A stretch of DNA of 64,000 nucleotides from Patescibacteria group bacterium (GCA_041662665.1 JBAZSC010000003.1:4603-68602), one strand, 5' to 3'. Numbered from the stretch's first letter, positions 1,571 through 62,177 are shown. Numbers and translations: made by a program. Notes: generated from the letters alone by a model not told the origin.

Positions 1571-1634
1571 TCCACCTTCGTCCTGCCTTCGCTTCGGCTA
1601 TGGCAGACAAGCCTGCGGGACTTCGGTGGACAAG
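1571..1634. repeat. GC-rich hairpin repeat, family 'CCACCTTCG...CTTCGGTGGACAAG', copy a
   Basis: tccaccttcg...cttcggtggacaag directly after the rpsG stop. GC-rich island in an AT-rich genome; related copies at 6681, 32143, 49626, 57534 and 62075. Confidence 0.7.
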
Positions 1635-1707
1635 TACGAATAATGCAAATGATACGAATTGCGAATACTGCAAATTCGAAATTTATATCATTTGCATTAT
1701 TTTTTTT
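1634..1707 (+). terminator. Rho-independent terminator candidate after rpsG
   Basis: Inverted repeat aatgcaaatgata / tatcatttgcatt followed by a T8 run. Confidence 0.5.
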
Positions 1708-1835
1708 GTTTAATTTTTATTGTGCATAAGATTGTTGCACTATTTTTATTTAATGATATATTATATTTAACTAGACAGATGCAGGTCGACTGTCAATAAA
1801 CTATTTAAAACAAAATAATTAATTAACAAAAAATT

Positions 1836-2252
1836 ATGAAGAAAATTTTTGCTTTTCTTACAGTTTGCGCACTTACATTAGGAGCAAATATTGCTTTCGC
1901 GCAAAATGATTTAGATTTTAATTTTACAACAACATCAACATTGAATGAAAGCGATGCGGAAGCATTAGCAGGATTAGGAATGGGAATGGGTGTTTTTGGA
2001 ATCATTGTTGCTATCATTGGTGGATTAATTGGATTGTTTTTCTTGATCTTCTGGATTATGATGTTAGTTGATTGTATTAAAAGAGAATTCCCAAATAGAG
2101 GCGTATGGTTGGCTGTTTTGATTATTACATTCTTTATTGGATGGTCATGGTTAGCATCAATCTTATATTATTTCATGGTAAAGAAAAAAAATGTTGGAAC
2201 AATGAAAGGCGGATCTTCAACTCCTGCTGCTCCAGCTGCACCGAAACAATAG
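1836..2252 (+). CDS. Hypothetical secreted/membrane protein with signal peptide, two TM helices and an Ala/Pro-rich C-terminus
   Basis: N-terminal signal-like MKKIFAFLTVCALTLGANIAFA and hydrophobic segments. No recognisable family. Confidence 0.55.
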   Translation: MKKIFAFLTVCALTLGANIAFAQNDLDFNFTTTSTLNESDAEALAGLGMGMGVFGIIVAIIGGLIGLFFLIFWIMMLVDCIKREFPNRGVWLAVLIITFFIGWSWLASILYYFMVKKKNVGTMKGGSSTPAAPAAPKQ

Positions 2253-2282
2253 TCATGAGTTTATAGAATATTACATATTTGC

Positions 2283-2312
2283 AAGGCTCCAATTAATTTT
2301 GGAGCCTTTTGA
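2283..2312 (+). terminator. Rho-independent terminator
   Basis: ggctccaattaattttggagcc hairpin followed by a T run. Confidence 0.6.
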
Positions 2313-2563
2313 TTTTATAATGAAGTTATTGAGTTATAAAGTTATAAAGTCCATAAAGTTTATAAAGTCTGACGTGTTGGTTTTGCGGAGAGATTCTACC
2401 CCCCCATGGGAGGGGTTTCGTAGTTGATGATGAGGGCATGTTTTTATTGTAAATTGTTTACTACGAATCCCTATCTTGGAAAGGTTAGAGGGTTTGGGCT
2501 TGCAAGATTTTTATTTTTTGTTTATACTATTTTAGATTTCTTTGACTAGAAGAGGAGGAAGAA

Positions 2564-3154
2564 ATGAGCACTTTAAAAAATTTTATTTTTTTGTTTATTG
2601 GAGGGAGTTTGTGTTTTATGGGTTATACTTTTTTTGTGAGTAATTTGAACATATTCCAGAGAATAATAGGTTTTTTACTTCTAACAATTTTTGTATTTAT
2701 TTTTGTGAAAATAACAAGGTATGAATATAGAAGTTCGAATTTTGTTAAAAATGTGCAAACTTTTGTTACAGGGAAAAAGCATTTTTGGAATTATTGTGAA
2801 TGCCATAAAAATGAGATTAGTGAAACGGCAAAATTATTGTTTGTATCAAGTATAGTAATTGGAATTTTTGATTTGTTTCTTTCTTTGTATATTTCTATTA
2901 ACTATGACATTATTGATGGATTATTTTTCTTCTTTTTATGTATGTTAATTGTTATGATTTTTGGAGTAAGTGCTGAATATGTAAGAAGATCAGATCAGAA
3001 ATATGCACATTTGAAAGATGAGAATCAAAAATTGCTGAAGCGGAAAGCAATTATTAAAGTTATTCATATTAATCCTGTTCAAGCAGGTCCTAATTTTGGC
3101 AGATATTTTTCAATTCACAATAAAAGAAATGAAAAAGATTATGGTCCTAATTGA
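2564..3154 (+). CDS. Hypothetical integral membrane protein
   Basis: Multiple hydrophobic helices; no recognisable motif. Inserted between rpsG and fusA. Confidence 0.5.
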   Translation: MSTLKNFIFLFIGGSLCFMGYTFFVSNLNIFQRIIGFLLLTIFVFIFVKITRYEYRSSNFVKNVQTFVTGKKHFWNYCECHKNEISETAKLLFVSSIVIGIFDLFLSLYISINYDIIDGLFFFFLCMLIVMIFGVSAEYVRRSDQKYAHLKDENQKLLKRKAIIKVIHINPVQAGPNFGRYFSIHNKRNEKDYGPN

Positions 3155-3337
3155 AGTTCTTTGTCTAGACTGTATTATCAGTCTTTTTTTATGCCAAAAA
3201 TTTTACATAAATTTCTGACAAATTTGAAACGGATAACATAGATAGCTCTTGCAATAATTTTATTTTGTAGTTATAATACGAGCATTGAGTTGGACTTAAG
3301 TGTTTTTAATTTTTATTTAACTTTTTAATTTTTTAAC

Positions 3338-5452
3338 ATGCCTAGAGAGTATTCATTAGAGAAAACAAGGAATATCGGAATTATTGCTCACATTGATGCT
3401 GGTAAAACAACTATTACTGAGCGTATTTTATTTTTTACTGGAATTTCACACAAAATTGGTGAAGTACATGAAGGTGCTGCAATCATGGATTGGATGGAAC
3501 AAGAACAAGAAAGAGGAATTACAATTACTTCAGCAGCAACAACTTGTTTTTGGTCTCCAATTTGGAAAAAAGAACAAGATAAACATCGCATCAATATCAT
3601 TGATACTCCTGGACACGTTGATTTTACTGTAGAAGTTGAAAGATCGTTGCGTGTTTTGGATGGAGCTGTTGTTGTTTTTGACGGCAAGATGGGTGTTGAG
3701 CCTCAATCAGAAACTGTTTGGCATCAAGCTGATAAATACCATGTTCCTAGAATTTGTTTTTTGAATAAGATCAATTTAGTTGGTGGCGATTTTTATAGAA
3801 GTTTAGATTCAATTCATAGCAGACTATCAAAAAATGCTCATCCAGTGATGTTGCCAATTGGTTCTGGTGAAGATATAAAAGGTGCTGTCGATCTTATAAT
3901 GATGAAAGCATATTTTAATGTTGAAGGAAAAGAAGAAGGCATGGAATTATCTGAACCTTCAGAAATTCCTGCTGACATGAAAGAAAAATGCGAAAAATAT
4001 CGTGCAGAATTAATTGAAAAAATTGTTGAAGCAGATGACAAGTTAATGGAAAAATATTTAGAAGGAGCTGAATTGACTGAAGAAGAAATAAGAGCAGCTT
4101 TAAGAAAAGCGACTTTAACTGGTAAGTTTTTTCCAGTTTTGGGTGGTGATGGTAGAAAAGCAATTATTAAAAAAGTATTGGATTATGTTATTGATTGTTT
4201 GCCAAGTCCTTTGGATGTACCAGCAATAGTTGCTTTTGATCCAGAAGATGAAACAAAAAAAATAGAAAGAAAAGTTTCTGATACAGAACCATTTACGGCT
4301 TTGGCGTTTAAAGTTGCAACTGATCCATTTGTAGGAAAATTAGTTTATTTTAGAGTTTATGCTGGAACTTTGACAGCTGGTTCTTACATTTTGAATTCAT
4401 CAACTGACAATAAAGAAAGAGTTGGTAGAATTGTTCGTATGCATGCAAATAAAAGAGAAGAAGTAGAAGAAGTTTATGCTGGAGATATTGCAGCAATTGT
4501 TGGTTTGAAAGGAACAACTACTGGTGATACTTTATGTGATATGGAACATCCTGTAATGTTGGAAAAAATTACTTTTCCTGAACCAGTTATTTCTATTGCA
4601 ATTGAGCCAAAAACAAAAGCTGATCAAGAAAAAATGTCTATGGCTTTGCGTGCTTTGTCTGAAGAAGATCCAACATTTAAAGTTCATACAGACGAAGAAA
4701 CGATGCAAACAATTATTTCTGGTATGGGTGAATTGCACTTGGATGTTTTAGTTGATAGAATGAAAAGAGAATTTAAAGTTGAAGCTAATATTGGAAATCC
4801 TCAAGTTGCTTATAAAGAAACTATTTTGGGTACTGCTGAAGCTGAAGGAAAATATATTAGACAATCAGGAGGTCATGGACAATATGGACATGTATGGTTA
4901 AGACTAGAGCCAAATGAAAGAAATAAAGGCTTCGAATTTATTAACGAAATTAAAGGTGGCGTAATTCCTCAAGAATTTATTCCAGCTGTTGGCAAAGGTT
5001 GTAAAGAAGCTTTGACTGAAGGCGTTATTGCTTCCTATCCAGTAATTGATATTAAGGCAACATTATATGATGGATCTTTCCATGATGTTGATTCCTCTGA
5101 AGCTGCTTTCAAAATTGCTGCATCTATGGCAATGAAAGAAGGCGAGAGAAGAGCAAAACCAATTTTACTTGAACCAATAATGAAAATTGAAGCAATGATG
5201 CCAGCTGAATTTATGGGTGATATTGTTGGAGATTTAAATTCAAAAAGAGCTCAAATTCAAAATATGGAAGACAGAGATAATTTAAAAATTATTTCTGCTA
5301 TGGTTCCATTGGCTTCGATGTTTGGATATGTAACAACAATTAGATCTATTACTTCTGGTCGTGGAAATTTCGTGATGGAATTTGATCATTATGAACAAGT
5401 TCCAAAAAATGTTGAATTGCAAATAGTCGAGGGACGTGTTGGTAAAAAATAA
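3338..5452 (+). CDS. fusA: Elongation factor G
   Basis: GTPase motifs [17 protein letters not shown] and NKID-like, 704 aa, EF-G domains IV-V (GQYGHVWL...). Confidence 0.96.
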
Positions 5453-5600
5453 TTGTAAAATTAGTAAAATTGATAAAATTAATAATTGAGTTTGTTAGAT
5501 AAGTTAGATTTGTTAGATAAGTTAGATTTGTTAGACTAGTTATAAATTCTTTAGGTCAGAAAATAAATCGTAATTAGCAAATATAATTTAAAATAAAAAT

Positions 5601-6023
5601 ATGACAATCAATGTTTTAGATCCAAAAGAATTCCCATCAATTTTAAGATTGTTAAAATCTACTGGTGGAAAATATATTATTGTTGAAGATGGAAAACCTT
5701 CTTTTGCTTTGATGTCAATTTCTGAATACGAAAAGTTATTAAATGATAAAGAAAAGACTGAAAAAAATTCTTCAAGCAAAGCTTTGATTGATAAAATAAA
5801 TTCGGATATTGCTAATTGGAAATTAGAGAATGAAGAAGAGGATAATGATGAAGAAGAAGATTATTCAGAATATATCCCAAAGAAAAATTGGGTAGAAGAT
5901 AAGCAATGCATTGATTATGAAGCGCTAAAAGAAAATAGTCAGAAAAATGATTTAGTGAATGAAGATTTGAGCTATTATTATGATGTTGATGAAGAACAAG
6001 AAGACGAAAGATTTGATTTTTAA
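5601..6023 (+). CDS. Phd/YefM-like antitoxin-fold N-terminal domain fused to a long acidic (D/E-rich) C-terminal tail
   Basis: N-terminus KYIIVEDGKPSFALMSISEYEKLL resembles the Phd/YefM core (ItrrGkpvavlvs.eeyesL). C-terminal half is highly acidic. Confidence 0.45.
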   Translation: MTINVLDPKEFPSILRLLKSTGGKYIIVEDGKPSFALMSISEYEKLLNDKEKTEKNSSSKALIDKINSDIANWKLENEEEDNDEEEDYSEYIPKKNWVEDKQCIDYEALKENSQKNDLVNEDLSYYYDVDEEQEDERFDF

Positions 6024-6077
6024 TATTGCAGGATTAAGTTAAATTGGATAAAAAGGAAATTTTGTTTATATTTATGT

Positions 6078-6497
6078 ATGAGATCTCTTATTTTGCATGT
6101 TAATAAATTTTCTACAGAGATTATTGAAAAATCTAAACGACCAAAAGAAATTATTCCCGAAAATAAAAAATCTAAAGCAGAGGAAATGAAAAATTGTTTA
6201 GTCGTCTTTTTTTGTGTAGAACAGGGAGATAGTGAAAAACAATTAGATGATTTATATAAGGAAATTTTGAAAACAGCTGACGAAGTTAAAACGAAAAACC
6301 TAATGATTTCTCCTTTTGTTCATTTATCAAATAAGATTGCTAGGCCTGAAGTGGCAAAACAACTTTATGAACTGCTAATTGACAAATTTATTGACTTAGA
6401 TTTTGTAATTAAATCATCACATTTTGGTTATCACAAAAGTCTATTGCTTGATATCAAAGGGCATCCAGGATCATTTCGTTATAGAGAGTTTTATTAG
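6078..6497 (+). CDS. Hypothetical protein
   Basis: ORF only. No Doc (HxFxDGNKR) or RelE/YoeB motifs, so it is not an obvious toxin partner for the upstream Phd-like gene. Confidence 0.4.
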   Translation: MRSLILHVNKFSTEIIEKSKRPKEIIPENKKSKAEEMKNCLVVFFCVEQGDSEKQLDDLYKEILKTADEVKTKNLMISPFVHLSNKIARPEVAKQLYELLIDKFIDLDFVIKSSHFGYHKSLLLDIKGHPGSFRYREFY

Positions 6498-6680
6498 AGA
6501 TTTAAGATTTGTAGTTATTAACAAAAAGGTCTTGCTTTATATCAAAAATATTGTTATAATGCTTCTTGCAAAATAGATTTTGGTAAAAACTATTTCTTAT
6601 TTTTGCAAAATTTTTTTAGATTATTATAACGAAGAATTTATATTTGACATTATAATTTTTTGCGTATATAATTAAAATAA

Positions 6681-6715
6681 TCCTCCTTCGTCTTTCTAAG
6701 ACTTCGGAGGATAAG
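6681..6715. repeat. GC-rich hairpin repeat, copy b (tcctccttcg...acttcggaggataag)
   Basis: Same TTCG / CTTCGG-flanked inverted repeat architecture, about 30 nt upstream of tuf. Confidence 0.6.
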
Positions 6716-6741
6716 TAATTAAATAAATTAAAATTAAAAAA

Positions 6742-7935
6742 ATGGCAGAAAAATTTGACAGATCAAAACCACATTTAAACGTTGGAACAATTGGCCATGT
6801 TGATCATGGTAAAACTACTTTAACAGCAGCTATCTTGAAAGTTATCAATGCTACTGGTAAAGGCAAAGCTCAAGAGCGAACAGTTGACCAAATTGACTCA
6901 GCTCCAGAAGAGCGTGAGAGAGGTATTACTATCGCTACAGCTCACTGTGAATACGAAACAGAAAAAAGACACTATGCACACGTTGATTGCCCAGGACATG
7001 CTGATTATATTAAGAATATGATTACTGGCGCAGCTCAAATGGATGGTGCTATTTTGGTTGTTTCTGCTGCTGACGGACCAATGCCTCAAACAAGAGAACA
7101 TATTTTGTTAGCTCGCCAAGTTGGTGTACCAGCTATTGTTGTTTTCTTAAATAAGGTTGATCAAGTTGATGATCCAGAAATGGTTGCTTTAGTTGAAGAA
7201 GAAGTAAGAGAATTATTAAAAAAATATCAATTCCCTGGTGATGAGATTCCAATTGTAAAAGGTTCAGCTTTGAAAGCTTTGGAAGATCCAAATGGTGAAG
7301 CTGGAAAACCAATTTTGGAATTATTGGAAAAATTAGATTCATATATTCCTGAACCAAAAAGAGATGTTGACAAACCTTTATTGATGCCTATTGAAGATGT
7401 ATTTTCAATCGAAGGTCGTGGTACTGTTGTTACAGGCAGAATTGAAAGAGGTATGGTTAAAATTAATGATACAGTTGAAATTGTTGGTTTGAAACCTACT
7501 CAAAAAACTGTTGCAACAGGTATTGAAATGTTTAACAAATCTTTGGATGAAGGTAGAGCTGGTGATAATGCTGGTATTTTACTTCGTGGAACAAAGAAAG
7601 AAGATGTTGAAAGAGGACAAGTATTAGCAAAACCAGGTTCAATTACTCCTCATACTGAATTTGAAGCAGAAAGCTATATTTTGAAAAAAGAAGAAGGTGG
7701 AAGACATACTGCGTTCACAAATGGCTACAAACCACAATTTTATGTTAGAACTACTGATGTTACTGGTGAAGTAACATTGCCTGCTGGAACTGAAATGGTA
7801 ATGCCTGGCGATACTGTCAATGGAATGAAAGTTAAATTAGTTGCTCCAGTTGCTATGGAAGAAAAAATGAAATTCGCTATTCGTGAAGGTGGAAGAACTG
7901 TAGGTGCTGGTGTTGTAACAAAGATTATTAAATAA
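6742..7935 (+). CDS. tuf: Elongation factor Tu
   Basis: [25 protein letters not shown] motifs; 397 aa. Confidence 0.97.
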
Positions 7936-7948
7936 TTTATTTTAATGT

Positions 7949-7978
7949 AGGGTACAAAAATTTTTGTACCCTACTAAT
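7949..7978 (+). terminator. Rho-independent terminator after tuf
   Basis: Perfect hairpin gtagggtacaaaaatttttgtaccctac. Confidence 0.65.
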
Positions 7979-7992
7979 TATAATTAAGCCCT

Positions 7993-8340
7993 TTGATGAC
8001 AAAGACTAAGAATCAAGAAAAGAAAGAAGAGACATCTTCTCCAAGAATAAGAATCAAAATTAAGGCGTTTGATCATAAGATTATTGATCAATCAGCAGAG
8101 CAAATAATTGAAACTGCAAAAAGATCTGGTGCAGAGGTTATTGGCCCGATCCCACTTCCTACTGAAAAGCATAGGGATACTGTTTTGAAATCCACTTTTG
8201 TTCACAAAGATGCTCGTGAGCAATTTGAGATTAGGATCCACAAGAGATTGATTGATATTGTGAAGCCAACACCGAAGACGATTGAAGCTTTGTCGAACCT
8301 TAATTTACCAGCAGGAGTTGATGTAGAGATAAAGATGTAA
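7993..8340 (+). CDS. rpsJ: 30S ribosomal protein S10, with a short N-terminal extension
   Basis: [17 protein letters not shown]...[12 protein letters not shown]...[12 protein letters not shown] matches S10. Confidence 0.93.
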
Positions 8341-9263: not shown

Positions 9264-9281
9264 AGATTATTTTGTTTATAT

Positions 9282-9893: not shown

Positions 9894-9972
9894 CGAGTAG
9901 CATGTAGAAAGTAGCAGGTAGAAAGCAGAACTTACTACTTACTACATTTTACTTTCTATTGGAAATAAATTT

Positions 9973-19811: not shown

Positions 19812-19838
19812 AATGAAGGTGGAAGCCTTCTTTTTTCT
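19812..19838 (+). terminator. Rho-independent terminator after secY
   Basis: tgaaggtggaagccttctttttt. Near-duplicate of the terminator at 20630. Confidence 0.55.
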
Positions 19839-19890
19839 TGTCTATTTTTTTTGGGAATGCTATATTAGAAGTGAAGTTAATTATAATTTT

Positions 19891-20223
19891 ATGAGTAAAC
19901 AAAAAAAGTTAAAAGAACTAGAAGTGATTACAAAAAGAATTGTTAAGAATTATGCTCCTGAAAAGATTATTCTTTTTGGATCGTATGCTTGGGGTAAGCC
20001 GACAGAAGACAGCGATTTTGATTTAATGATTATAAAAAAGAATAAAAAAAGTGGTAAGGAAGGATTTTTTGAGGAAAATATGAAAGTGAGAGATATAATT
20101 GATGGTGAATTAGCGATTGATGTTTTAATACATACGCCAGAAGAAATTAAAAAAAGGTTGGACATGGGGGATTTCTTTTATGACAATATAATAAAAAAGG
20201 GAAAATATCTTTATGAAAAGTGA
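19891..20223 (+). CDS. Nucleotidyltransferase-domain protein (minimal nucleotidyltransferase, MNT), antitoxin-type component
   Basis: LFGSYAWGKPTEDSDFDLMII matches the GS...D.D polymerase-beta-like NTase motif. Start moved to the internal ATG because the ORF's 5' part overlaps the secY terminator. Confidence 0.8.
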   Translation: MSKQKKLKELEVITKRIVKNYAPEKIILFGSYAWGKPTEDSDFDLMIIKKNKKSGKEGFFEENMKVRDIIDGELAIDVLIHTPEEIKKRLDMGDFFYDNIIKKGKYLYEK

Positions 20224-20614
20224 TAGGAAAGATAAAGAAAAATTATTTCCAGAATGGTTTAGAAAAGCTGAAGAAGATGAACTTTCGGCTAGAGATATTT
20301 TGAATGATCAGGAAGGAGCACCGAGTACGGTTTGTTTTCTGAGTCAACAAATTGCTGAAAAATGTTTGAAAGGATATTTGGTTTATAAGAAAAATGAATT
20401 TCCTAGGATTCATCTTTTGGATAAATTAATAAATTTATGTCGGGAGATTGATCGAAGTTTTGATGATATAATGAAAGAAGCTAAGTTTTTGAGTGATTTT
20501 TATGTTGCAACCCGTTATCCAGGTGATTTTCCTGATTTTGATTTTAAAGATGCAGAGAAGGCTTTTGAAGCAGCTTTAAAGATTAAGAATTTTGTTTTGA
20601 AAAGGATTAAATAA
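20213..20614 (+). CDS. HEPN-domain protein, partner of the MNT gene
   Basis: ATRYPGDFPD motif typical of HEPN domains paired with MNT genes; 11-nt overlap (ATGAAAAGTGA) with the upstream gene. Confidence 0.75.
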   Translation: MKSDRKDKEKLFPEWFRKAEEDELSARDILNDQEGAPSTVCFLSQQIAEKCLKGYLVYKKNEFPRIHLLDKLINLCREIDRSFDDIMKEAKFLSDFYVATRYPGDFPDFDFKDAEKAFEAALKIKNFVLKRIK

Positions 20615-31999: not shown

Positions 32000-32794
32000 A
32001 TGGAACAACAAAAATTAAAAGTAGCGATGGTTTCTTTAACTTCCTGTGAAGGATGCTATTTTAGTTTGCTTGATTTGGGAAATGAATTTTTGGAAATCGC
32101 AGATAAAATTGATTTAGTTAAATTTAGATTACTTAAGGAAGACCCGCCTTCGCTCCTAGCGAATTCGGAGCTTCGGCGGGCAAAGGAAAAATATGATATA
32201 ACTTTTGTTGAAGGAAGTCCGATTTCAGAAGATAATTTTGATAAATTAATTGATTTAAGATTAAGGACGAAAAAAATGATAGTTTTGGGAGGATGTGCTC
32301 ATACTGGTGGAACGTATGCAATGCGAAATCATACAGACAAGAAAAAAGCCTGCAAATATGTTTATCCAAAAACGAATAAAAAAATTTTTAATCCTAATAT
32401 TTTAGAATTATCAAAAGTTGTACATATCGATGGGATTATTCCAACTTGTCCAGTTAATCCAAGAGAATTCGTAAGATTTATGTCTTTTGTTTTGAATAGT
32501 TTGACTTTTAAAATTACTGAGAGGCCAGTTTGTTATGAATGTCAGTTAGCGCAAACTTCTTGTTTATTAAAAATGGGATTGCCATGTTTTGGACCAATGG
32601 CTTTGGGTGGTTGCGATGCTCCTTGTCCTAGAGCAGGTATGCCATGCCAATTATGTCGTGGGCCAATGAAAGAAATACAATGGGATAATTTTGAAAAGAA
32701 AATGAAAGATATTATGGGAGCAAAAGTTTGGGAAAAAGATTATAATGAAATATTGGAAATTTTTAATGTTAAAGACAAGATAAGTGTTGAATAA
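32000..32794 (+). CDS. [NiFe] hydrogenase small (delta) subunit
   Basis: VAMVSLTSCEGCYFSLLD N-terminal proximal-cluster motif, plus C-terminal Cys motifs (CPVNP, CYEC, CDAPC, CQLC). Carries an in-frame GC-rich repeat insertion at 32143-32186. Confidence 0.82.
   Translation: MEQQKLKVAMVSLTSCEGCYFSLLDLGNEFLEIADKIDLVKFRLLKEDPPSLLANSELRRAKEKYDITFVEGSPISEDNFDKLIDLRLRTKKMIVLGGCAHTGGTYAMRNHTDKKKACKYVYPKTNKKIFNPNILELSKVVHIDGIIPTCPVNPREFVRFMSFVLNSLTFKITERPVCYECQLAQTSCLLKMGLPCFGPMALGGCDAPCPRAGMPCQLCRGPMKEIQWDNFEKKMKDIMGAKVWEKDYNEILEIFNVKDKISVE
32143..32186. repeat. GC-rich hairpin repeat, copy c, inserted in-frame within the hydrogenase small-subunit CDS
   Basis: cccgccttcgctcctagcgaattcggagcttcggcgggcaaagg, encoding DPPSLLANSELRRAKE. 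Same family as the 1571, 57534 and 62075 copies. Confidence 0.65.
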
Positions 32795-33269: not shown

Positions 33270-33282
33270 TTTGTACTATTTT

Positions 33283-33392
33283 TGCCAAAAATTATTTTTC
33301 TTCAGTCTGCGGAACTCGCCTCGTTTCACTCGGCTCAGACAATCCTCGACTTCAGAAAAAAAATTTTTGGCAAAATAAATTTTTAATTTATT
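33283..33392. repeat. Palindromic element immediately upstream of the hydrogenase large-subunit gene
   Basis: Arms tttttgccaaaaatt / aatttttggcaaaa flank a GC-richer core cttcagtctgcggaactcgcctcgtttcactcggctcagacaatcctcgacttcag. Confidence 0.5.
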
Positions 33393-43557: not shown

Positions 43558-45293
43558 ATGCAAAGACTTTGGCAGGTAAAACAAAAAATAAGTGAAGATT
43601 TTATTAATAAATTTCCAGAATTTGATTCTGTGATTTTGCAATTGTTATTTAATAGAGGAATTGATAATCAGAAAAAGATTGATGAATTTTTTAATCCAGA
43701 TTATTCAAAAAATTTATTTGATCCATTTTTATTGAAAGATATGGATCGAGCGGTTGAAAGAATTTTTAAGGCATTAAAGAATAAAGAAAGAGTTGGAATT
43801 TTTGGTGACTATGATGCTGATGGCGTAACATCATCTGTTTTATTAACAGAATTATTTAAAAAAATTGGTTTGGCTGGGCAAGTTTATATTCCTGATCGAG
43901 TCTCTGAAGGCTATGGAATGAATAAGAAAGCAATTGATTGGCTAGCAAAAAAAGATATTAAATTGATTGTCAGTTGTGATTGTGGTGTTTCAAACAAGGA
44001 AGAAATTGATTATGCAAAAGAAAAATATGGAATTGATTGCGTAATTACTGATCACCATCATGTTCCTATAGATTTTGATAAAAAATATATTGTTGTTGAC
44101 TCAAAAAGAAAGGGTGATAAATATCCATATAAAGAGTTGGCGGGTGTTGGCGTTGTTTTTAAGCTGGCTCAGGCATTGATCACTCGAATTAATTTTCGAA
44201 TAAAAGCGAATGAATTTTCGAATGTTAAACTTGAAAATGGTTGGGAAAAGAGTTTGCTTGATTTAGTGACGATTGGCACGATTGCGGATTGTTCGCCGAT
44301 TATTTCGGAGAATAGAACATTGGTGAAATATGGATTAAATATTATAAAAGAGACTGAAAGAATTGGTTTGCAAAGTTTGATGCAAGTAGCTTGCGTTGAT
44401 CCAAAATTAATTAATAGCGACAGAATCGGTTTTGCAATTGCGCCAAGAATTAATTCAGCTGGCAGAATGGATCATGCTTCGGCATCGTATAAACTTTTGA
44501 TTACAGAAGATTTGGAAAAAGCAGTTTGGTTGTCTAAAAAAATCGATAAGACAAATTCAAGCCGGCAATCTTTGACAAGTAAATTAGTTGATGAGGCAAA
44601 AAAGAAAATTGGCGATGTCAAAGATCAAAAAGTATTAATGGCATCTGGTGGAAATGGCCTTTGGGCGTTGTAGGTATTGTGGCTGGCAGGATTTGTGAAG
44701 AATATAATCGGCCAACTTTGATTTGTGGTAAGGGCTTGATTGAATCTGTTGGATCAGCTAGAAGTATTCCTGCTTTTGATATTATTGACGCTATTTCTTC
44801 TTGTAAAAATTTGTTATTAGAATATGGCGGACATAAACAAGCAGCTGGCTTTTCTTTGAAAAATGAAAATTTTGAAAAATTTCATAAAAAATTAGAAAAA
44901 ATTGCAACAGAAAAAATAGATGAAAAAGATTTACAGCCAGTAATTGAAATTGACAGCGAAGTTGATTTTAAAGATGTGAATTGGAATTTGTATGAAAGAT
45001 TATTAGATTTTGAACCTCATGGAATTGGAAATCGAAAGCCGGTTTTTTTGGCAAAAGATATTCAAGTTATTAATGCTTATCCTGTTGGCAAAACAAAAAA
45101 GCATTTAAAAATGAAAATTAAGTCTAATTCCGATAGTCGGATTTTTGATGTGATTGGTTTTAATCATGGACATAGAGTAGAGGAGTTAAATAAAAAAGGT
45201 AAAATGGATATTGTTTTTAATTTGGATTGTAATGAATGGAATGGAGAAAAGATTTTGCAGTTGAGACTTGTTGATTTTAGGATTTCACTCTAA
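43558..45293 (+). pseudogene. recJ: Single-stranded-DNA exonuclease RecJ, split into two ORFs (43558..44673 and 44661..45293) by a frameshift near 44650-44662
   Basis: N-terminal ORF carries DHH motifs (GDYDADGVTS, ITDHHH). C-terminal ORF carries DHHA1 (GGHKQAAGF). The canonical ...WxPGVVGIVAGRI junction appears as WKWPLGVVGIVAGRI in the shifted frame. Could be a real pseudogene, a sequencing error or a slippage site. Confidence 0.7.
44181..44230. repeat. TCGAAT-rich repeat inserted in-frame within recJ
   Basis: cactcgaattaattttcgaataaaagcgaatgaattttcgaatg encodes ITRINFRIKANEFSN. Its 22-nt core aattttcgaataaaagcgaat recurs at 45296 just after the recJ stop. Confidence 0.65.
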
Positions 45294-49050: not shown

Positions 49051-49618
49051 GACTCAAGTAAGTTGAGTGATTGCTCTGTACATGGTTTGCAAAAATTATG
49101 TGCGGAGAGGAAAGTCCGGGCATCATTTGGAGGTTGGATGTGAGAAATGGGAAATGGGAAAAGAAAAATTCTCATTTTCTCATATCCCATATCCAACTTC
49201 CAATTTCGTGGTAGTTCCGAAATGGAACCAAGTATAAGAAATTGCTAACTGCTAATAGTTTATAGCTAATAGTTGATAGTTGTTTCGAAGCTAGGACCAG
49301 TGCCACAGAGACGTAAACTACCGGGGAACTAGTAACTAGGAAACTAGTAATTAGGGAACTGGAAAAGGTGAAAAGAGTGGTGTAAAAGACCACAGATTGT
49401 CATGGTGACATGGCAATGGGGTAAACTCTACCTGATGCAACCCAATATAAACTGGGGCATGAATTGTCAAGCAATTGACAATCCAGAGAGATAATCACTG
49501 AATCTCTAATTTGCACTAATTTAGCACAAATAGCACGAATAACTATTTGTGAAATTCGTGATAAATTTGTGCCTATTAGAGATTCTACAGAACCTGGCTT
49601 ATAGACTTACTTGAGTCA
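49051..49618 (+). ncRNA. rnpB: RNase P RNA (bacterial type A), unusually long at about 568 nt owing to AT-rich helix expansions
   Basis: P4 strands GAGGAAAGTCCGGGC (49087-49101) and ACAGAACCTGGCTTA (49588-49602). Conserved AAGGTGAAAAGAGTGGTGTAAAAGACCAC. 13-bp P1 pairing gactcaagtaagt / acttacttgagtc. Confidence 0.85.
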
Positions 49619-49625
49619 TTTTAAT

Positions 49626-49658
49626 CTGCCTACGTCTTGAGGGACTTCGGTAGACAAG
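49626..49658. repeat. GC-rich hairpin repeat, copy f, just 3' of rnpB
   Basis: tctgcctacgtcttgagggacttcggtagacaag. Confidence 0.55.
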
Positions 49659-49783
49659 AAGTTATAAACAACCCAACATGTTTTGTTGAGTTTTTTTTAT
49701 TTTTGGGTTAGAATAATGTTAGTAAACAGGAAACAGAAAACAGTATTTTCTATTTTCTATTTTTCATTAACTATTTTCTATAA

Positions 49784-53058: not shown

Positions 53059-53084
53059 TAATAAGTAACTAGTAACTGAATTTT

Positions 53085-54134: not shown

Positions 54135-54146
54135 TTTTATTTAAGT

Positions 54147-55337: not shown

Positions 55338-55340
55338 TGA

Positions 55341-55509
55341 ATTTTTAATTTTCAATTTCTAATTTCTATTAAATTTTTAATGCATTAATTTCTAAACGCT
55401 TTCGTCAAAGGTTTAAAAATTAGTTAATTAGAGTTAAAAGCGACATTAAGGAGCTTTTAACGGGTAGTAACCCTTTAATAGAAATTGAAAATTAGAAATT
55501 AGAAATTTT
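55341..55509. repeat. Palindromic intergenic element, family A, longest copy
   Basis: ttcaatttctaatttctat ... gaaattgaaaattagaaattagaaatttt. Contains the internal hairpin gttaaaagc...gcttttaac, which also occurs at 43385-43412. Confidence 0.65.
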
Positions 55510-55511
55510 CT

Positions 55512-56639: not shown

Positions 56640-56801
56640 AGTTATAAGGTTATAAAGTTGGAGCATTATTCATGCTCTATTTTTTTTGATAAAAATATGT
56701 TATTATAAATTCGCGAATAGACACAAATGAAGCACAAATTTCACTAATGAATATCTGTGTATTTGTGTGATTTGTGCTAGAATAGTGCAAATTCGAGATT
56801 C

Positions 56802-59780
56802 ATGATAAACAAAAACAAATTTAGAATTATTGGTGATGTAGCGGATTTTAATAATGGTCCGGCAGTTTTAGATTTGCGTGAAATTGGAAAAGCAAGAAAA
56901 CTTGAAGAAAAGCAGAGATTAGAGAAAGATTTGATTAATCTAAGATCATCGCAGAAAAACGCAGAAGCGAACGTAGAAAACGCAGAAGCGAACGCAGAAA
57001 ATGCGGAAACTAATGCGGAAAATGAGGAAGCTAACTTACTTGTTGATCAGGTAGGTGCAGAAAAAGCAGTAGAACAAATACAAATACAAGAATTACAGAA
57101 ACCTAAAGTTCAAGAAAAAAATGATGAGCAAATTTTAGTTCAGCATGAAGATCAAGTGAAGCCCGTTGTTTTACCTCAAGCAGAAATTGTTGCTAAACCG
57201 TTAGTGATTAAGGATGAAAAACCAAAAGTAAAAAAAATGTCTTTTAGCAAGAATTGGTTGCAAAGACAAGCAGAAAAGAAAAAAATAAGAAATGCAAAAA
57301 TAGCTGAGATTAAAAGAATAAAATTAGAAAAACAACAGAAAGAACAGGAATTAAAGAAAGCAAGAATTTTAGAACAGCAAAATATAAAATTAAAAAAAGA
57401 ATTAGAAAAAAGAGAAGCAAAAAAATTATGGCTTTTAGCAAAACAGGAAGCTAAACGTAAAAAGTTAGAGGAGAAAAAGGCATTACAAGAAAAAATATTA
57501 TTACAAAAACAACAACTAAAATTAAAAAAAGAATCCGCCTTCGCTCTTGCTAGAGCTACGGCGGACAAAGAAAGAATTTTGGAAAAGCAAAGATTGGAAT
57601 TAGAATTGAAAGCAAGACAGGAAGAATTGAGACTTAGAAAAATAGCCGAAAAGCAAGAATTAGAATTAAGATTGCAATTAGAACAACAAGAAAAAGAAGA
57701 GAGAAAATTAATTGAACAGCAAAGAAAAAGTTTTCAAGAACAGCAAAAACCAAAAGTTGATTATTTATTATTATTTAAAAATAGATTTGGCAAGAGTTTT
57801 AGATTCTCATTAATCTTTTTTGTTCTGGTTTGCGCTATTTTAATGTCTGGAATTAAGGGTTTAGATTTTTTTAGTTCTCAAGCAAAAAATACAAAATCAA
57901 AAATATTAAGCGATGCAATGGTTGCTTATCAATATATGGGATCAGCAACTAATTCAGCGACAAGCAAGGATTTTGAAATGGCATCTTATAAATTTGGCGT
58001 GGCTGGAGATAGATTTTTGAATGCGCAAAAAGATTTGAATCAATATGGCGAAGTTTTGACTTCAGTTCTAAAAATTATGCCTGGCGCATCAGCTGTTAGA
58101 TCAGGCGATAATTTGCTGTCAGCTGGCGCTAATTTATCACAAGCTGGAGAATATTTATCATCAGCAGTAACTCCTTTTAATGATTTAGGCAGTTTTATTA
58201 GCTTGCCTAGTGATGAAAATAGCAATAACCAAAAAACTACTTTAACAGAATTATTATCTGAAGCAACGAATAATTTGAATTTAGCAATTGGAAAATTAGA
58301 TGCTGCTAACTCAGATTTAAAGAATGTAAAAGTTTCTGATTTGCCTTCTGATGTAGCGCCAAAAATTGCAACAATTAAAGATAATTTGCCAACGATTAGT
58401 TCTGATTTAAAAACTTTGACTTCTTATTCTGATAATTTTTTGCAAATGCTTGGACATAAGGGCGCAAAAAGATATTTAGTATTATTTGAAAACAATAGGG
58501 AATTAAGACCTACTGGCGGATTTATGGGAACATATGCTTTAGTTGATATTGATTCTGGTAAGATAAAAAATATTAAAATAGAAGGTCCATATAATTTGGA
58601 TGGAAATTTAATGGAAAAAATAATTGCTCCAGAGCCATTACGATTGATTCAAGTTAAATTATTTTTGAGAGATTCTAATTGGTTTTTAGATTTTCCAATG
58701 TCAGCAAAAAAAGTAATGTCAATGTATGAAAAATCAGGCGGGCCTACAGTTGATGGCGTTTTTACAGTTACAGGTAATGTGATGGAAGCTTTGTTAGGAG
58801 TAACAGGCGAAATTGATATGCCAGAATATGGAACAGCAGTCAATGCTGATAATTTTTTTGATAAAACGCAGTTTGAAGTGGAATATGATTATGACAAACA
58901 AGAAAATGAACCAAAGAAATTTTTGGCAGATCTTTTTCCAGTATTCCTTGACAGATTGTCAAATTTAAGCAAGGATAAATGGTTGGAAACTGCAAATGTG
59001 ATGTATAAGATGCTTGATCAGAAAGATATTATGATGTATTTTAATGATGAAAAACTAGAAAATTTTGTAAAAGAATTTAATTGGACTGGCGAGATAAAGA
59101 ATCCAAGCAAAGATTATTTATCAACTGTTATAACAAATATTGGCGGAGGAAAAACAGATGATGTTATTGACCAAAATATTTTTCATGAAGCAGAAATTCA
59201 AGATGATGGTTCAGTGATTGATACAATAACAGTAACAAGAATTCATAATGGCGATCCAAATGATATGTGGACTAGTGTTAAGAATATGGCTTATATGAGA
59301 TTTTATGTTCCACTAGGAAGCGAGATGATTGAAGCTCGAGGTTTTGATAAAGAATTTTGGGGAGTTCTTCGACCGTTAGAAGAAGGTTCTAACCCTGATC
59401 CTTTGATTTCAAATATTGAAAATAATACAAAAGTTAATAATGAAAATGGAATTAGAATTATGGAAGAAGGCGGTAAGACTGTTTTTGCAAATTGGATTGG
59501 TATCGAATGTGGTCAAGCAAAAACAATGGTGATAAAATATAGATTACCTTTTAAAGTGCAAAAGACTGGTCAAGATGCAGCGACTTCTTATGCAATGTTT
59601 TTTCAAAAACAACCAGGTACAAAAGCGTTTGAAACAACAAGTATTTTGAAATATCCAATAGATTATTATGTTAATTGGAAATATTCTTCTGATAATATGT
59701 TGACTGAAGTTTCTGATGGATTGCAATATAGGACAAATTTGAATAAAGATAAAGCATATGCAGTGGTATTTGTGAAATAG
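56802..59780 (+). CDS. Large envelope protein: charged coiled-coil N-terminal region with oligopeptide repeats, one TM helix, and a large extracytoplasmic domain that appears DUF4012-like
   Basis: E/K/Q-rich 300 aa with NAEAN repeats; TM FRFSLIFFVLVCAILMSGI; then LVLFENNRELRPTGGFMGTYALVDID, resembling the DUF4012 N.E.R.TGGF.G signature (recalled from memory, not searched). Confidence 0.55.
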   Translation: MINKNKFRIIGDVADFNNGPAVLDLREIGKARKLEEKQRLEKDLINLRSSQKNAEANVENAEANAENAETNAENEEANLLVDQVGAEKAVEQIQIQELQKPKVQEKNDEQILVQHEDQVKPVVLPQAEIVAKPLVIKDEKPKVKKMSFSKNWLQRQAEKKKIRNAKIAEIKRIKLEKQQKEQELKKARILEQQNIKLKKELEKREAKKLWLLAKQEAKRKKLEEKKALQEKILLQKQQLKLKKESAFALARATADKERILEKQRLELELKARQEELRLRKIAEKQELELRLQLEQQEKEERKLIEQQRKSFQEQQKPKVDYLLLFKNRFGKSFRFSLIFFVLVCAILMSGIKGLDFFSSQAKNTKSKILSDAMVAYQYMGSATNSATSKDFEMASYKFGVAGDRFLNAQKDLNQYGEVLTSVLKIMPGASAVRSGDNLLSAGANLSQAGEYLSSAVTPFNDLGSFISLPSDENSNNQKTTLTELLSEATNNLNLAIGKLDAANSDLKNVKVSDLPSDVAPKIATIKDNLPTISSDLKTLTSYSDNFLQMLGHKGAKRYLVLFENNRELRPTGGFMGTYALVDIDSGKIKNIKIEGPYNLDGNLMEKIIAPEPLRLIQVKLFLRDSNWFLDFPMSAKKVMSMYEKSGGPTVDGVFTVTGNVMEALLGVTGEIDMPEYGTAVNADNFFDKTQFEVEYDYDKQENEPKKFLADLFPVFLDRLSNLSKDKWLETANVMYKMLDQKDIMMYFNDEKLENFVKEFNWTGEIKNPSKDYLSTVITNIGGGKTDDVIDQNIFHEAEIQDDGSVIDTITVTRIHNGDPNDMWTSVKNMAYMRFYVPLGSEMIEARGFDKEFWGVLRPLEEGSNPDPLISNIENNTKVNNENGIRIMEEGGKTVFANWIGIECGQAKTMVIKYRLPFKVQKTGQDAATSYAMFFQKQPGTKAFETTSILKYPIDYYVNWKYSSDNMLTEVSDGLQYRTNLNKDKAYAVVFVK
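57534..57570. repeat. GC-rich hairpin repeat, copy d, in-frame within the DUF4012-like CDS
   Basis: tccgccttcgctcttgctagagctacggcggacaaag, encoding SAFALARATADKE. Confidence 0.6.
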
Positions 59781-59790
59781 TTAGTAAAGC

Positions 59791-59900
59791 TACAAATTCC
59801 AAATTCCAAACAAATTACAAACCACAAGTCACAAACTTTTTGTTTTTGTAATTTGGGATTTGTAGTTTGTTTGGAATTTGGTGCTTGTAATTTGTAATTT
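59791..59900. repeat. Palindromic intergenic element, family B, between the DUF4012-like gene and murJ
   Basis: caaattccaaattccaaacaaattacaaaccacaag ... ttgtaatttgggatttgtagtttgtttggaatttggtg. Confidence 0.65.
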
Positions 59901-59902
59901 TT

Positions 59903-61450
59903 ATGAAATTGTTTGAAAAGTATAAAAAATATTTTATATCAGGCGCGTTGATTTTAGGTATCTCTTCTTTTTTATCGCGCTTTTTAGGTTTGGTTAGAGA
60001 TAGATTATTTGCTGAACAATTTGGTGCAGGCAGAGATTTGGATGCATATTATGCAGCATTTAGAATTCCAGATTTTATTTTTAATTTGTTGATTTTAGGC
60101 GCATTATCTTCGGCATTTATTCCAATTTTTGTTGATTATTTATCACAAAAAAAACAAAAAGAAGCATGGCATTTGGCTAATTCGTTACTGAATATTATTC
60201 TAGGAATTACGATTGTAATTTGCGCGATTATATTTATTTTTGCGCCTCATTTGATGTTTTTGATTGCGCCTGGATTTAGCGGATCTGAAAAAGAGTTAAC
60301 TGCACAATTAACTCGAATCATGCTTTTGTCGCCGATATTTTTTGGATTTTCGAATATCGCTGGTGCGATTTTAACTTCATATAAAAGATTCTTTTTTTAT
60401 GCTTTAGCTCCAATAATGTATAATTTAGGAATTATTTTTGGAGCTTGGTTTTTAGTTGATCCTTATGGTATAAAAGGAATAGCTTATGGTGTTGTAATTG
60501 GCGCATTTTTGCATTTTATTGTTCAACTGCCAAGTATTTATAAATTAGGTTATCGTTATAAATTCATTTTTGATTATACGCATAAGGGTGTTCAGAGAGT
60601 TGTAAATTTAATGATTCCATCAATTATGGGTCTTGCAATGACACAGATAAATCTTTGGGTAATTACAGTAATTGCATCATTAATTTCAGTCGGCAGTATT
60701 ACTATTTTTAATTTTGCGAGCAATTTGCAATATTTTCCAGTCGGAGTATTCGGAATATCAATTGGTCTTGCTGCTTTTCCAAAATTAGCTGAAGCAGTTT
60801 CGTTAAAAAAATCAATGTTGTTTAAAAATACTTTCTCTTTTGCATTTTCGAAAATTATGTTTTTTGTAATTCCAATTTCTGTTTTTATGCTGTTGATGCG
60901 CGCGCAAATTGTTAGGTTAGTTTTAGGTTCTGGAAAATTTGATTGGGAAGATACATATTTAACAGCGCAATCTTTAGGACTTTTTACTTTAAGTTTGTTT
61001 GCTCAAGCATTAATTCCTCTTTTAGTCAGGTCTTTTTATTCGATGCAAGATGCAAAGACTCCAGTTTTTATTAGTATAGTTTCAATGATAACAAATATTG
61101 CTGGCGGATTAATATTATCAAAATATTTTGGTGTATTAGGATTGGCTTTAGCGTTTTCTTTTGCAGCATTGATAAATATGTTATTATTGTTTGTAGTATT
61201 GAGATATCGGCTTGGTGATTTGGGAGATTCGGAAATTATAAAAAGTATTTTAAAGACTTCTTTTTTAACAATCATTTCTGGAATAGTTTGTTATTGTTTA
61301 TTAATTATTATGGCGAATTTTGTTGATATGGAAACATTTATTGGAATATTATTGCAAGCAAGCGTTGCATTTGTTGGAGGAGCAGGAGTATTTATTCTAT
61401 TAGCTTGGGTGTTCAAGTTTCGTGAACTAGGAATTGTAAAAAGTAACTAG
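59903..61450 (+). CDS. murJ: Lipid II flippase MurJ (MviN)
   Basis: N-terminal LSRFLGLVRDRLFAEQFGAGRDLDAYYAAFRIPDF MurJ signature; 14 TM helices; 515 aa. Confidence 0.88.
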   Translation: MKLFEKYKKYFISGALILGISSFLSRFLGLVRDRLFAEQFGAGRDLDAYYAAFRIPDFIFNLLILGALSSAFIPIFVDYLSQKKQKEAWHLANSLLNIILGITIVICAIIFIFAPHLMFLIAPGFSGSEKELTAQLTRIMLLSPIFFGFSNIAGAILTSYKRFFFYALAPIMYNLGIIFGAWFLVDPYGIKGIAYGVVIGAFLHFIVQLPSIYKLGYRYKFIFDYTHKGVQRVVNLMIPSIMGLAMTQINLWVITVIASLISVGSITIFNFASNLQYFPVGVFGISIGLAAFPKLAEAVSLKKSMLFKNTFSFAFSKIMFFVIPISVFMLLMRAQIVRLVLGSGKFDWEDTYLTAQSLGLFTLSLFAQALIPLLVRSFYSMQDAKTPVFISIVSMITNIAGGLILSKYFGVLGLALAFSFAALINMLLLFVVLRYRLGDLGDSEIIKSILKTSFLTIISGIVCYCLLIIMANFVDMETFIGILLQASVAFVGGAGVFILLAWVFKFRELGIVKSN

Positions 61451-61476
61451 GAATTTGTAACTAGTAACTAAAAATT

Positions 61477-62052
61477 ATGGATGAAATAATTTTGGCAACT
61501 GGCTCGCCATATAGACAACAGTTATTCAGTAATTTAGGATTGAATTTTCGTGCTGAAAAAAGTGATGTTGATGAGAATTTTTCTGATCGACCAAGTGATC
61601 CTAAAAAATTAGTTATAGAATTAGCAAAAAGAAAAGCTTTAACAATTGCCAAGAAAAATAAAACAGGAATTGTAATTGGATTTGATTCGATTGGATATGC
61701 ATCCGGAAAGATATTAGAAAAGCCAGTTTCAAGAAAAGATGCTTTTAAAATGTTAAAAAAACTTTCAGGAAGTTCATGGTATTTTGTGACTGGAATTTTT
61801 ATAATTAATATTGAAAAAAATAAAAGTTTGAAAAAAGTTGTTTCAACAAAAATATATTTTAGACAAATTTCTGATTTTGAAATAAATAAATATCTTGATC
61901 AAGATAAAAATTATTGTACTTATGCTTCTGGATTTAATGCTTCAAAATATTATAGTTCAACTTTTTGCGATCGAATTTCTGGAAGCTATAATAATTTATG
62001 CGGAGGTTTGCCTTTAGAAGTAATTATAAAGATGTTAGATAAAATAAAATAA
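61477..62052 (+). CDS. maf: Maf-like nucleoside triphosphate pyrophosphatase
   Basis: IILATGSPYRQQLFSNLGLNFRAEKSDVDE Maf N-terminal motif; 191 aa. Confidence 0.8.
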   Translation: MDEIILATGSPYRQQLFSNLGLNFRAEKSDVDENFSDRPSDPKKLVIELAKRKALTIAKKNKTGIVIGFDSIGYASGKILEKPVSRKDAFKMLKKLSGSSWYFVTGIFIINIEKNKSLKKVVSTKIYFRQISDFEINKYLDQDKNYCTYASGFNASKYYSSTFCDRISGSYNNLCGGLPLEVIIKMLDKIK

Positions 62053-62074
62053 ATTTTTATAAATAAATAAAACA

Positions 62075-62177
62075 TCCACCTTCGCTTCTGCGGAAGCTTC
62101 GGTGGACAAGTTCCGCCTTCGCTCTGAGGAGCTTCTGCCTTCGCTGAAGCTTCGGCAGACAAGTCGGCGGACAAAGG
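62075..62177. repeat. GC-rich hairpin repeat cluster, copy e: 2-3 tandem units immediately upstream of the 62187 gene
   Basis: tccaccttcgcttctgcggaagcttcggtggacaag, then ttccgccttcgctctgaggagcttctgccttcgctgaagcttcggcagacaag, then tcggcggacaaagg. Confidence 0.7.

Follow-up and report, generated by a model that had tools for sequence, protein, structure and literature searches.

A 64-kb stretch of DNA from a metagenome-assembled genome (MAG) of the Patescibacteria, or Candidate Phyla Radiation (CPR), a source named by protein matches, carries nine copies of a short G+C-rich hairpin element at seven sites, two of which hold nested pairs. This stretch, called here the window, has a G+C content of 31%, and all of its genes and all nine copies of the element lie on the plus strand. 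We consider it probable that the copies are members of a family of tiny DNA hairpins, 30-45 nt long, which are mobile but non-autonomous, resemble repetitive extragenic palindromic (REP) elements and may be moved in single-stranded form. Such a REP-like mobile mini-element is of a kind already known; what is unusual here is the conservation across phyla, the self-nesting at a fixed site, the ten-codon design free of stops and the frequent residence in essential genes, CPR included.

Anatomy of the element and its copies in the window

The consensus of the unit is T-CCNCC-TTC-[G-stem, loop, stem-C]-TTC-GGNGG-A-CAAG, with a length of 30-45 nt. As RNA or as DNA it folds into an outer stem of 6 bp, a symmetric 3x3 TTC/TTC internal loop, and an inner stem of 2-7 bp capped by a small loop; the last 4 nt form a single-stranded tail. 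Copies differ in the sequence of the inner hairpin but agree in the outer stem, the loop triplets and the CAAG tail, as is expected if the ends alone are recognised. In an alignment of 76 sequences, 91.8% of the cells were paired, compared to 38-47% when the partners were slid by 1-3 columns, and double-sided changes were found at 7 of the 11 pairs (79 cells), a number reached by none of 500 shuffles. Four outer pairs were fixed by the search pattern; the covariation comes from the pairs left free, namely the central N, the T/A closing pair and every inner-stem pair. Compensatory changes back both the outer and the inner stems. The z-scores for RNA fold stability range from -1.9 to -4.7; both DNA strands fold equally well, and the counts of wobble pairs (G-T versus A-C) favour neither strand.

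Two other readings of the fold were rejected. A UUCG tetraloop is not formed, as the folds and the pair counts place the TTCG blocks, with their flanking stems, in the 3x3 TTC/TTC internal loop. Nor is the hairpin an intrinsic terminator: no T-run follows the hairpin, CAAG is followed by unrelated sequence, copies also occur inside open reading frames (ORFs), and no terminator-like call was obtained at two element-bearing spacers. At the gathering threshold of Rfam, the RNase P RNA was the sole match in the window and nothing was matched over the elements in 17 other loci; at E <= 10, Rfam returned only chance-level matches and no family for the element.

The number of copies in the window is far above that expected by chance. 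The string CCNCCTTCG occurs six times on the plus strand and never on the minus strand (0.27 expected), and the right-hand block TTCGGNRGACAAG, with at most one mismatch, occurs five times (0.31 expected). A covariance model (CM) was built from 76 aligned copies of this and other genomes, so that the window copies used in the model match it by construction; with filters off, its seven top matches over the window scored 37-48 bits, all on the plus strand, and the next best scored 9.4 bits. Two independent assemblies from other samples contain identical copies at identical positions, which excludes an assembly artefact. The density of nine copies per 64 kb compares with 2 strong and 4 weak copies in ~132 kb of related genomes. 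As a control, 707 kb around fusA from unselected metagenomic bacteria, which are distant relatives (<=65% identity) recovered by an EF-G metagenome scan, gave one match of >=30 bits.

The first site, 1571..1634 (CM 37.9 bits), lies 12 nt 3' of the rpsG stop codon and is a composite, in which an outer copy of 34 nt hosts in its inner stem a 30-nt guest at 1582..1611 (CCTGCC...GGCAGACAAG), found by the pattern scan and lying between the two arms of its host's inner stem (GTC|...|CTGCGGGAC). The copy of the second site, 35 nt in the tuf leader at 6681..6715 (41.1 bits), begins 9 nt after the -10 hexamer of a tuf promoter (TTGACA-17-TATAAT at 6644-6672) that agrees with the sigma-70 consensus at 12 of 12 positions; the tuf mRNA should thus start with a stable hairpin. 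At 32143..32186 (38.4 bits) a copy lies in frame in a [NiFe]-hydrogenase small-subunit-like gene (32000-32794), where it encodes ...PPSLLANSELRRA..., and a 34-nt copy at 49625..49658 (37.0 bits) stands 8 nt past the 3' end of the RNase P RNA (49055-49617). The second in-frame copy, 36 nt at 57534..57569 (40.6 bits), encodes SAFALARATADK within a Lys/Glu-rich segment of a DUF4012 gene (56802-59780) and was found too in the independent assembly L229. The spacer between maf and the gene at 62187 harbours a simple 36-nt copy at 62075..62110 (45.5 bits), followed at 62112..62175 by an outer copy of 34 nt without its insert, recognised by the pattern scan and its sequence and broken at the right-hand GCT^TCGG by a nested 30-nt copy at 62134..62163 (TCTGCC...GGCAGACAAG), which with 48.1 bits is the best CM match of the window.

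An earlier note on this DNA had placed the motif at six loci, all of which are borne out, and had correctly positioned copies at the ends of rpsG, rnpB, tuf and the gene at 62187. Its count of at least six falls short of the nine copies found here. The 2-3 tandem units that it described at 62075 are indeed multiple units, arranged not as a simple tandem but as one simple copy followed by a nested pair. Its likening of the TTCG blocks to UUCG tetraloops gives way to the internal loop described above.

Filled and empty sites, targets and nesting

The window was compared with relatives whose proteins at the compared loci are ~73-93% identical to its own, and all seven window sites were found empty in these genomes. 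The copy of the tuf leader is a clean 35-nt insertion at AAAATAA^TAATTAAA with respect to three relatives, and the copy after the RNase P RNA is a clean 34-nt insertion at TTTTAA^AAGTT with respect to locus L004. The whole 103-nt block 62075-62177 after maf is absent in L004, whose spacer measures 27 nt, and L225, L226 and L227 all lack the copy after rpsG. Filled and empty sites differ by exactly one unit, with an ambiguity of at most 2 nt, and a search for target-site duplications at the clean sites returned none.

Regarding the two in-gene copies, the hydrogenase small-subunit-like protein (Pfam Oxidored_q6) carries DPPSLLANSELRRAKE at a place where the E/K-rich loop is shorter in five orthologs (82-85% identity) and in 15 more distant ones. 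The inserted segment is missing in 21 of the 22 aligned orthologs; the exception, P0007 (79% identical, locus L003), has a copy of its own, TCCGCCTTCGTCCAGTGTCGCTGGACTCCGGCGGACAAG, within the same loop but a few codons farther downstream, which is an independent insertion event. The AlphaFold model places the hydrogenase insert in the flavodoxin-like domain, between strands E37-42 and E65-71, and gives it a predicted local distance difference test (pLDDT) score of ~50 compared to 80-85 on either side. In the DUF4012 protein, SAFALARATADK stands in place of the AEEKSLRE of five orthologs (62-85% identity). Both insertions are found in charged segments of low complexity. The 12-15 residues encoded by the in-frame copies amount to a net gain of only +10 amino acids in the hydrogenase small subunit and +4 in the DUF4012 protein, since the original low-complexity loop has lost a few of its codons. 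The earlier note had rightly seen that both copies are in frame, although its figure of 13-16 added residues is not confirmed, and it had put forward the alignment of orthologs as the test that could refute an insertion; orthologs at 79-85% identity are without both peptides, which are therefore not ancestral.

Conversely, the relatives carry copies at sites where the window is empty. In GCA_964574655.1 (L001), a 33-nt in-frame insertion is found in a family-2 glycosyltransferase (GT2) gene, and a clean 36-nt insertion is found in an Fe-S protein gene (I-R-E-[PAFASEEAVVGK]-G-G-L-D). At L227 ~2700-2770 of the same assembly, a composite near-identical in architecture to that of 1571-1634 occupies a different locus, which indicates that composites move as units. 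A+T-decayed remnants of the element are also present in relatives. Since the window sites are empty in relatives and relatives have copies of their own elsewhere, the element is mobile. Units are gained and lost at orthologous sites between close genomes, and the window copies have been inserted recently.

The nature of the target is best seen in Bradyrhizobium, where the element is a guest inside a resident CGTC-type REP. This REP is empty (CTGGATTGCT^TCGCTGCGCTCGCAATGACG) at five loci, reading TCGCT... after the insertion point, and is filled at eight loci by exactly TCCGCC...GACAAG, 30 nt, at GCT^TCG; no duplication beyond a 2-nt ambiguity distinguishes filled from empty REPs. Among the 120 copies listed, the flank consensus is GCT before the unit and TCGG after it. 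These flanks rebuild GCT^TCGG, as in the right half of the element itself, and nesting at that position fits. Indeed, a guest is found at the right-hand GCT^TCGG or CT^ACGG in the window's 62112 composite and in all seven composites of other phyla (L053, L054, L055, L106, L110, L114 and L117). The 1571 composite departs from this fixed position, its guest lying inside the inner stem (GTC^CTGCG). Head-to-tail abutment of units (CAAG|TCC) is also common. In a Komeilibacteria contig (L015 2700-3140), an intact tRNA gene, by eye tRNA-Asn(GTT), has just upstream of it a tandem array of ~95-nt units, and each unit consists of a 5' fragment of the tRNA-Asn gene with the hairpin element in its D-loop (AGCT^CAATGG). 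The flanks are able to form a stem of >=6 bp in 17.5% of the copies compared to 9.5% of permuted controls, an excess suggesting that loops of existing hairpins are favoured. In these comparisons, insertion occurs without detectable target-site duplication and, the 1571 composite excepted, self-insertion takes place at one fixed position, the right-hand GCT^TCGG.

Other repeats and structured segments also occur in the window. A second, A+T-rich type of repeat forms clusters of imperfect palindromes (CACAAAT/ATTTGTG and (C/T)ACGAAT/ATTCGT(A/G)) at 1563-1690, 49500-49580 and 56700-56790, that is, after rpsG, within the gene for the RNase P RNA (in its 3' part) and upstream of the DUF4012 gene, and similar strings are present in L006 and L007. 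The RNase P RNA (49055-49617) measures 563 nt for a model of 367 positions, and the ~60-nt A+T-rich insertion near its 3' end is common to L006 and not to L004. Another G+C-rich segment (CAGTCTGCGGAACTCGCCTCGTTTCACTCGGCTCAGAC), at 33280-33380, is enclosed by the arms of an A+T-rich inverted repeat (TTTTGCCAAAAATT...AATTTTTGGCAAAA) and belongs to the spacer that precedes the hydrogenase large-subunit gene; this spacer measures 124 nt in the window and only 30 nt in L001, and the segment may be a further palindromic element that was inserted. Spacers also contain short tandem (A/G)TTATAAAG motifs (gagttataaagttataaagtccataaagtttataaagtc), at 2330-2370, 56640-56660 and 49659-49668, the last directly 3' of the 49625-49658 element. 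A G+C-rich stretch at 2383-2429 (TTGCGGAGAGATTCTACCCCCCCATGGGAGGGGTTTCG), upstream of the 2564-3154 ORF, lies outside the hairpin family and may be a leader structure.

Spread across bacteria and residence in coding sequence

A pattern of the two ends, with 20 specified bases, was scanned over one genome per bacterial species, for which ~30 chance matches are expected in 596 Gb at uniform composition. The scan returned at least 120 loci in more than ten phyla, isolate genomes included. The hosts comprise Bradyrhizobium (many species, two complete genomes), other Alphaproteobacteria, Gammaproteobacteria and Bdellovibrionales; Niastella populi, Chitinophaga and other Bacteroidota; Acidobacteriota, Verrucomicrobiota, Planctomycetota and Kiritimatiellia; Elusimicrobia, Armatimonadetes, Chloroflexota and one cyanobacterium; and at least 12 lineages of the CPR, including Komeili-, Portnoy-, Adler-, Kaiser-, Roizman-, Gracili- and Saccharibacteria and Parcubacteria. 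Among the matches listed, the G+C content of the hosts spans 35% to 73%. The minimal form of 29+1 = 30 nt is the commonest, accounting for 63 of the 120 matches listed, and 28 of these share one centre (TCCGCCTTCGCCAAGGCTTCGGCGGACAAG). In 78% of the listed copies the two free N positions complement each other, compared to 37.5% by chance. The dominance of the 30-nt form, the common centre and the complementarity of the N positions indicate that these are not chance matches, and the same element, with near-identical ends, is present in many bacterial phyla. By contrast, it was not found in 5,426 E. coli genomes, 72,556 plasmids gave only chance-level partial matches, and 17 matches were obtained in 2.9 million IMG/VR viral contigs, a rarity that gives no sign of a phage vector. 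A search of open-access full text by sequence, encoded peptide and topic found no published description of the element.

In other genomes, only in-gene cases verified by Pfam were counted. Sense copies lie in frame in genes for a P-type ATPase, a Niastella ABC ATPase, a RecF/SMC-like ATPase and the MgsA of a Kaiserbacterium, and antisense copies lie in frame in those for a Portnoybacterium glutamyl-tRNA synthetase (GluRS), a Chitinophaga arginyl-tRNA synthetase (ArgRS), an Eco57I-type methylase and a ComM-like ATPase. In sense orientation, the peptide most often read from the element is S-A-F-A-K-A-S-A-D-K. The consensus 30-mer consists of ten codons with no stop in any of the six frames. Unit length is divisible by three in 65 of 95 distinct units (p = 3e-12), and in 34 of 64 when the 30-mers are left out (p = 9e-4), the copies not being phylogenetically independent. 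Similarly, 57% of the units are stop-free in six frames compared to 15% of composition-matched shuffles, a control that is generous to the element, as its conserved ends are stop-free by pattern. A series of 30, 33 and 36 nt, rather than the 30, 32 and 34 nt expected from added base pairs, points to family-level selection for frame neutrality. In this gene-dense CPR genome, copies survive only at places of low harm: short spacers, the 5' and 3' ends of transcripts, and, in frame, poorly conserved charged surface loops.

Explanations and known systems

The traits that the element has in common with HUH-type transposition are the lack of target duplication, a specific short insertion sequence and ends defined by a hairpin. 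In the explanation that we favour, a REP-like mobile hairpin, copies would be moved in trans by an enzyme that recognises, on a single strand, the outer stem together with the internal loop and the CAAG tail. The likeliest candidate would be an HUH-type transposase acting on single-stranded DNA, in the way that REP-associated tyrosine transposases (RAYT) act on REPs and TnpA acts on the insertion sequences (IS) IS200/IS605; we infer that this type of enzyme best fits the combination of hairpin, short tag, absence of duplication, short target, preference for loops and composites moving by their outer ends. Frame-neutral and stop-free variants would be favoured because they are able to persist inside genes, and the selection for in-frame insertion raised by the earlier note gains support from the unit lengths in multiples of three and the stop-free frames. 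That note had also called the element mobile and REP- or MITE-like. Mobility and REP likeness stand, given the empty sites and the relatives' own copies; a MITE, or miniature transposable element with inverted repeats, was rejected, as no terminal inverted repeats surround a core, the unit measures 30-45 nt compared to ~70-300 bp, and no target is duplicated. Most likely the element has no function for its host, in view of the fast turnover of sites, the nesting and the antisense positions in genes. Individual hairpins, at the 5' end of the tuf mRNA or after the RNase P RNA, may secondarily affect RNA stability, which is needless for explaining the distribution.

Several observations weigh against a REP-like element moved by such an enzyme. 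No transposase-like or RAYT ORF was detected among the 30 ORFs of the window, 64 kb of the genome, that were scanned against Pfam. Neither strand of the element carries the GTAG or CGTC tag of REPs, its own tag being CAAG (CTTG on the other strand). Among 118 CM matches, most are single, tandem or nested, and the inverted neighbours typical of REP doublets forming hairpins (REPINs) occur in few loci (L015, L044 and L059). The end sequences are near-identical across phyla, which is unusual for REP/RAYT families, typically lineage-specific. Single-strand transposition coupled to replication should bias the orientation, the active strand lying on the lagging-strand template; the bias observed is only moderate and, in fragments of 8 kb, inseparable from gene direction. 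The top strand lies on the locally G-rich strand in a ratio of 64:46 overall; in low-GC genomes the ratio is 25:10, and in loci with a strong skew it is 41:19. The two in-gene copies of the window are not clean insertions, each replacing 4-8 codons. The string TACGAATA stands on both sides of the 1571 copy and could be a duplication or a local repeat; AAAACA likewise flanks the 62075 block, and both lie in repetitive A+T-rich sequence and are unconvincing as duplications. Finally, the window copies do not share the preference for GCT^TCG and are preceded by A-rich sequence. GCTTCG occurs ten times in the window, mostly inside elements, and the A-rich sites perhaps reflect its scarcity at 31% G+C or a sub-family with a relaxed target.

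Among the alternatives, the hairpins could be functional RNA elements (stabilisers of mRNA 5' or 3' ends, processing sites or protein-binding sites) kept in place by selection and resembling one another through a shared function at the RNA level. We regard this as unlikely. It would account for the orientation of the window copies, which are sense to the flanking genes in nine of nine cases, for their location at the ends of transcripts (+1 to +2 of the tuf mRNA, after the RNase P RNA and after rpsG), for the stable RNA folds with stems kept by compensatory changes, and for the ~2.5:1 bias to the purine-rich, coding strand in low-GC genomes. In the window, the strand of the copies is at once the gene strand and the strongly G-rich strand (GC skew +0.27), and a single strand for seven independent sites has a two-sided probability of ~1.6%. 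Against this reading, the sites are unconserved even between genomes with ~73-93% identical proteins, copies lie in ORFs in both orientations, antisense in the GluRS and ArgRS genes, and they are nested in one another, in unrelated REPs and in tRNA fragments. The lack of terminator features and of an Rfam family, and the equal folding of both DNA strands, also argue against a role as RNA.

Movement by another route, be it an RNA intermediate with a reverse transcriptase, template switching or repair synthesis at hairpins, or a topoisomerase or site-specific nuclease acting at CTT|CG, is in our view improbable, though it has a number of observations in its favour: CTTCG is present twice within the element and once more in its preferred target, GCT^TCG, hairpin loops are favoured (those of REPs, the tRNA D-loop and the internal loop of the element itself), and the excess of flank stems described above, the small size of CPR genomes, the transposase-free set of scanned window ORFs and the sense orientation of the window copies are all compatible with it. 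Speaking against it are the ends, which by being conserved across phyla point to a sequence-specific protein, the absence of poly-A tails and of other marks of retro-insertion, and the antisense copies in genes. Hardly any weight is given to the proposal that the segments are ancestral sequence or ordinary lineage-specific indels, G+C-rich palindromes by chance rather than a repeat family. Both in-gene sites do lie in low-complexity, indel-prone loops, but nine same-ended copies are found where 0.3 are expected, the CM scores of 37-48 bits stand against 9 bits, the same 30-mer recurs in unrelated phyla, and filled and empty REPs of Bradyrhizobium differ by exactly 30 nt.

A broader form of the mobile-hairpin explanation is, as we see it, doubtful. 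It holds that the element would be pan-bacterial, 30 nt long and harmless to translation (ten codons, no stop in six frames), colonising genes as readily as spacers and crossing phyla, and that it would be moved by a widely shared enzyme or a universal host process which recognises CCNCC-TTC...TTC-GGNGG-ACAAG and inserts at GCT^TCG or in hairpin loops. If true, the element would be among the smallest mobile elements known.

Further features of the window concern its genes. RecJ appears to be split into two overlapping ORFs (43558-44673 and 44661-45293), the 3' ORF having the DHHA1 and RecJ_OB domains; in a relative, it is a single gene of 572 amino acids with DHH, DHHA1 and RecJ_OB, and the split in the window may be a frameshift, a sequencing error or genuine. 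Toxin-antitoxin-like genes are present in the translation cluster, namely a Phd/YefM-like ORF at 5601-6023 between fusA and tuf and a nucleotidyltransferase/HEPN pair at 19813-20614 after secY and ribosomal genes. Genes of homing-endonuclease type found in relatives, LAGLIDADG by lepA (L006 17197-18018) and GIY-YIG by RNase H (L004 355-612), are absent at the same places of the window.

The element represents sequence-defined selfish DNA inside essential genes of ultra-small CPR genomes and provides a marker of recent insertions and of strain-level variation in unculturable organisms. The conservation of a 30-nt hairpin across phyla implies a conserved recognising machinery, which would either be a mobilisation system not described before or represent a further activity of one already known. 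It also matters for annotation: loops of 10-15 residues arise in hydrogenases, tRNA synthetases and ATPases, spurious small ORFs with PPS...LRRT, LRQGFGGQ and AFAKASADK are created, and the reading of indels in alignments is affected. For RNA stability, natural experiments are provided by the copies that stand at the 5' end of the tuf mRNA and after the RNase P RNA.

Among known systems, REPs are sequences of 20-40 nt, mostly intergenic, that are thought to be mobilised in trans by an HUH enzyme acting on single-stranded DNA. The element is like them in being a short G+C-rich imperfect palindrome with a conserved tag at one end and many dispersed copies; it differs in that its ends are near-identical across phyla, whereas REP families are lineage-specific. 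REPs have been reported inside coding regions of several species, including tRNA-synthetase and repair genes (PMC3733652). In the same study, Bradyrhizobium GTAG-14 REPs were described as having unusually large 'GCGG/CCGC-type loops' of complementary residues (PMC3733652), and the element, found here as a guest in a Bradyrhizobium REP, probably accounts for these loops.

IS200/IS605 and IS91 also insert without target duplication at a specific tetranucleotide and have subterminal hairpins that define their ends, but they are of kilobase size, carry a transposase gene and have two different ends. IS91 has CTTG/GTTC next to the palindrome of oriIS (PMC13181058). The bottom strand of the element likewise opens with CTTG and then the hairpin; the tetranucleotide, however, belongs to the target in IS91, whereas CAAG lies within the inserted 30 nt of the element.

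The closest parallels for residence in genes are found in other small repeats. Rickettsia palindromic elements (RPE), reportedly described by Ogata et al. in 2000 as ~100-150 bp long and confined to Rickettsia, are likewise selfish palindromic repeats that lie in frame in functional protein genes and beside RNA genes, in a small, A+T-rich and gene-dense genome, where they add a peptide loop without destroying the protein. The present element differs from them by its size of 30-45 nt, its host range across phyla and its apparently unrelated sequence. The small dispersed repeats (SDR) of the Nostocaceae are said, after Elhai et al. in 2008, to measure 21-27 nt, to be restricted to one cyanobacterial family and to lie largely outside coding sequence; by this description, they resemble the element in being very small mobile repeats with specific short insertion sequences, nested in other repeats, with no encoded function or transposase known. 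The G+C clusters of yeast mitochondria, finally, are palindromic mini-elements in A+T-rich DNA that are polymorphic between strains and occasionally in frame, as in var1; they are organelle-borne and of unrelated sequences.

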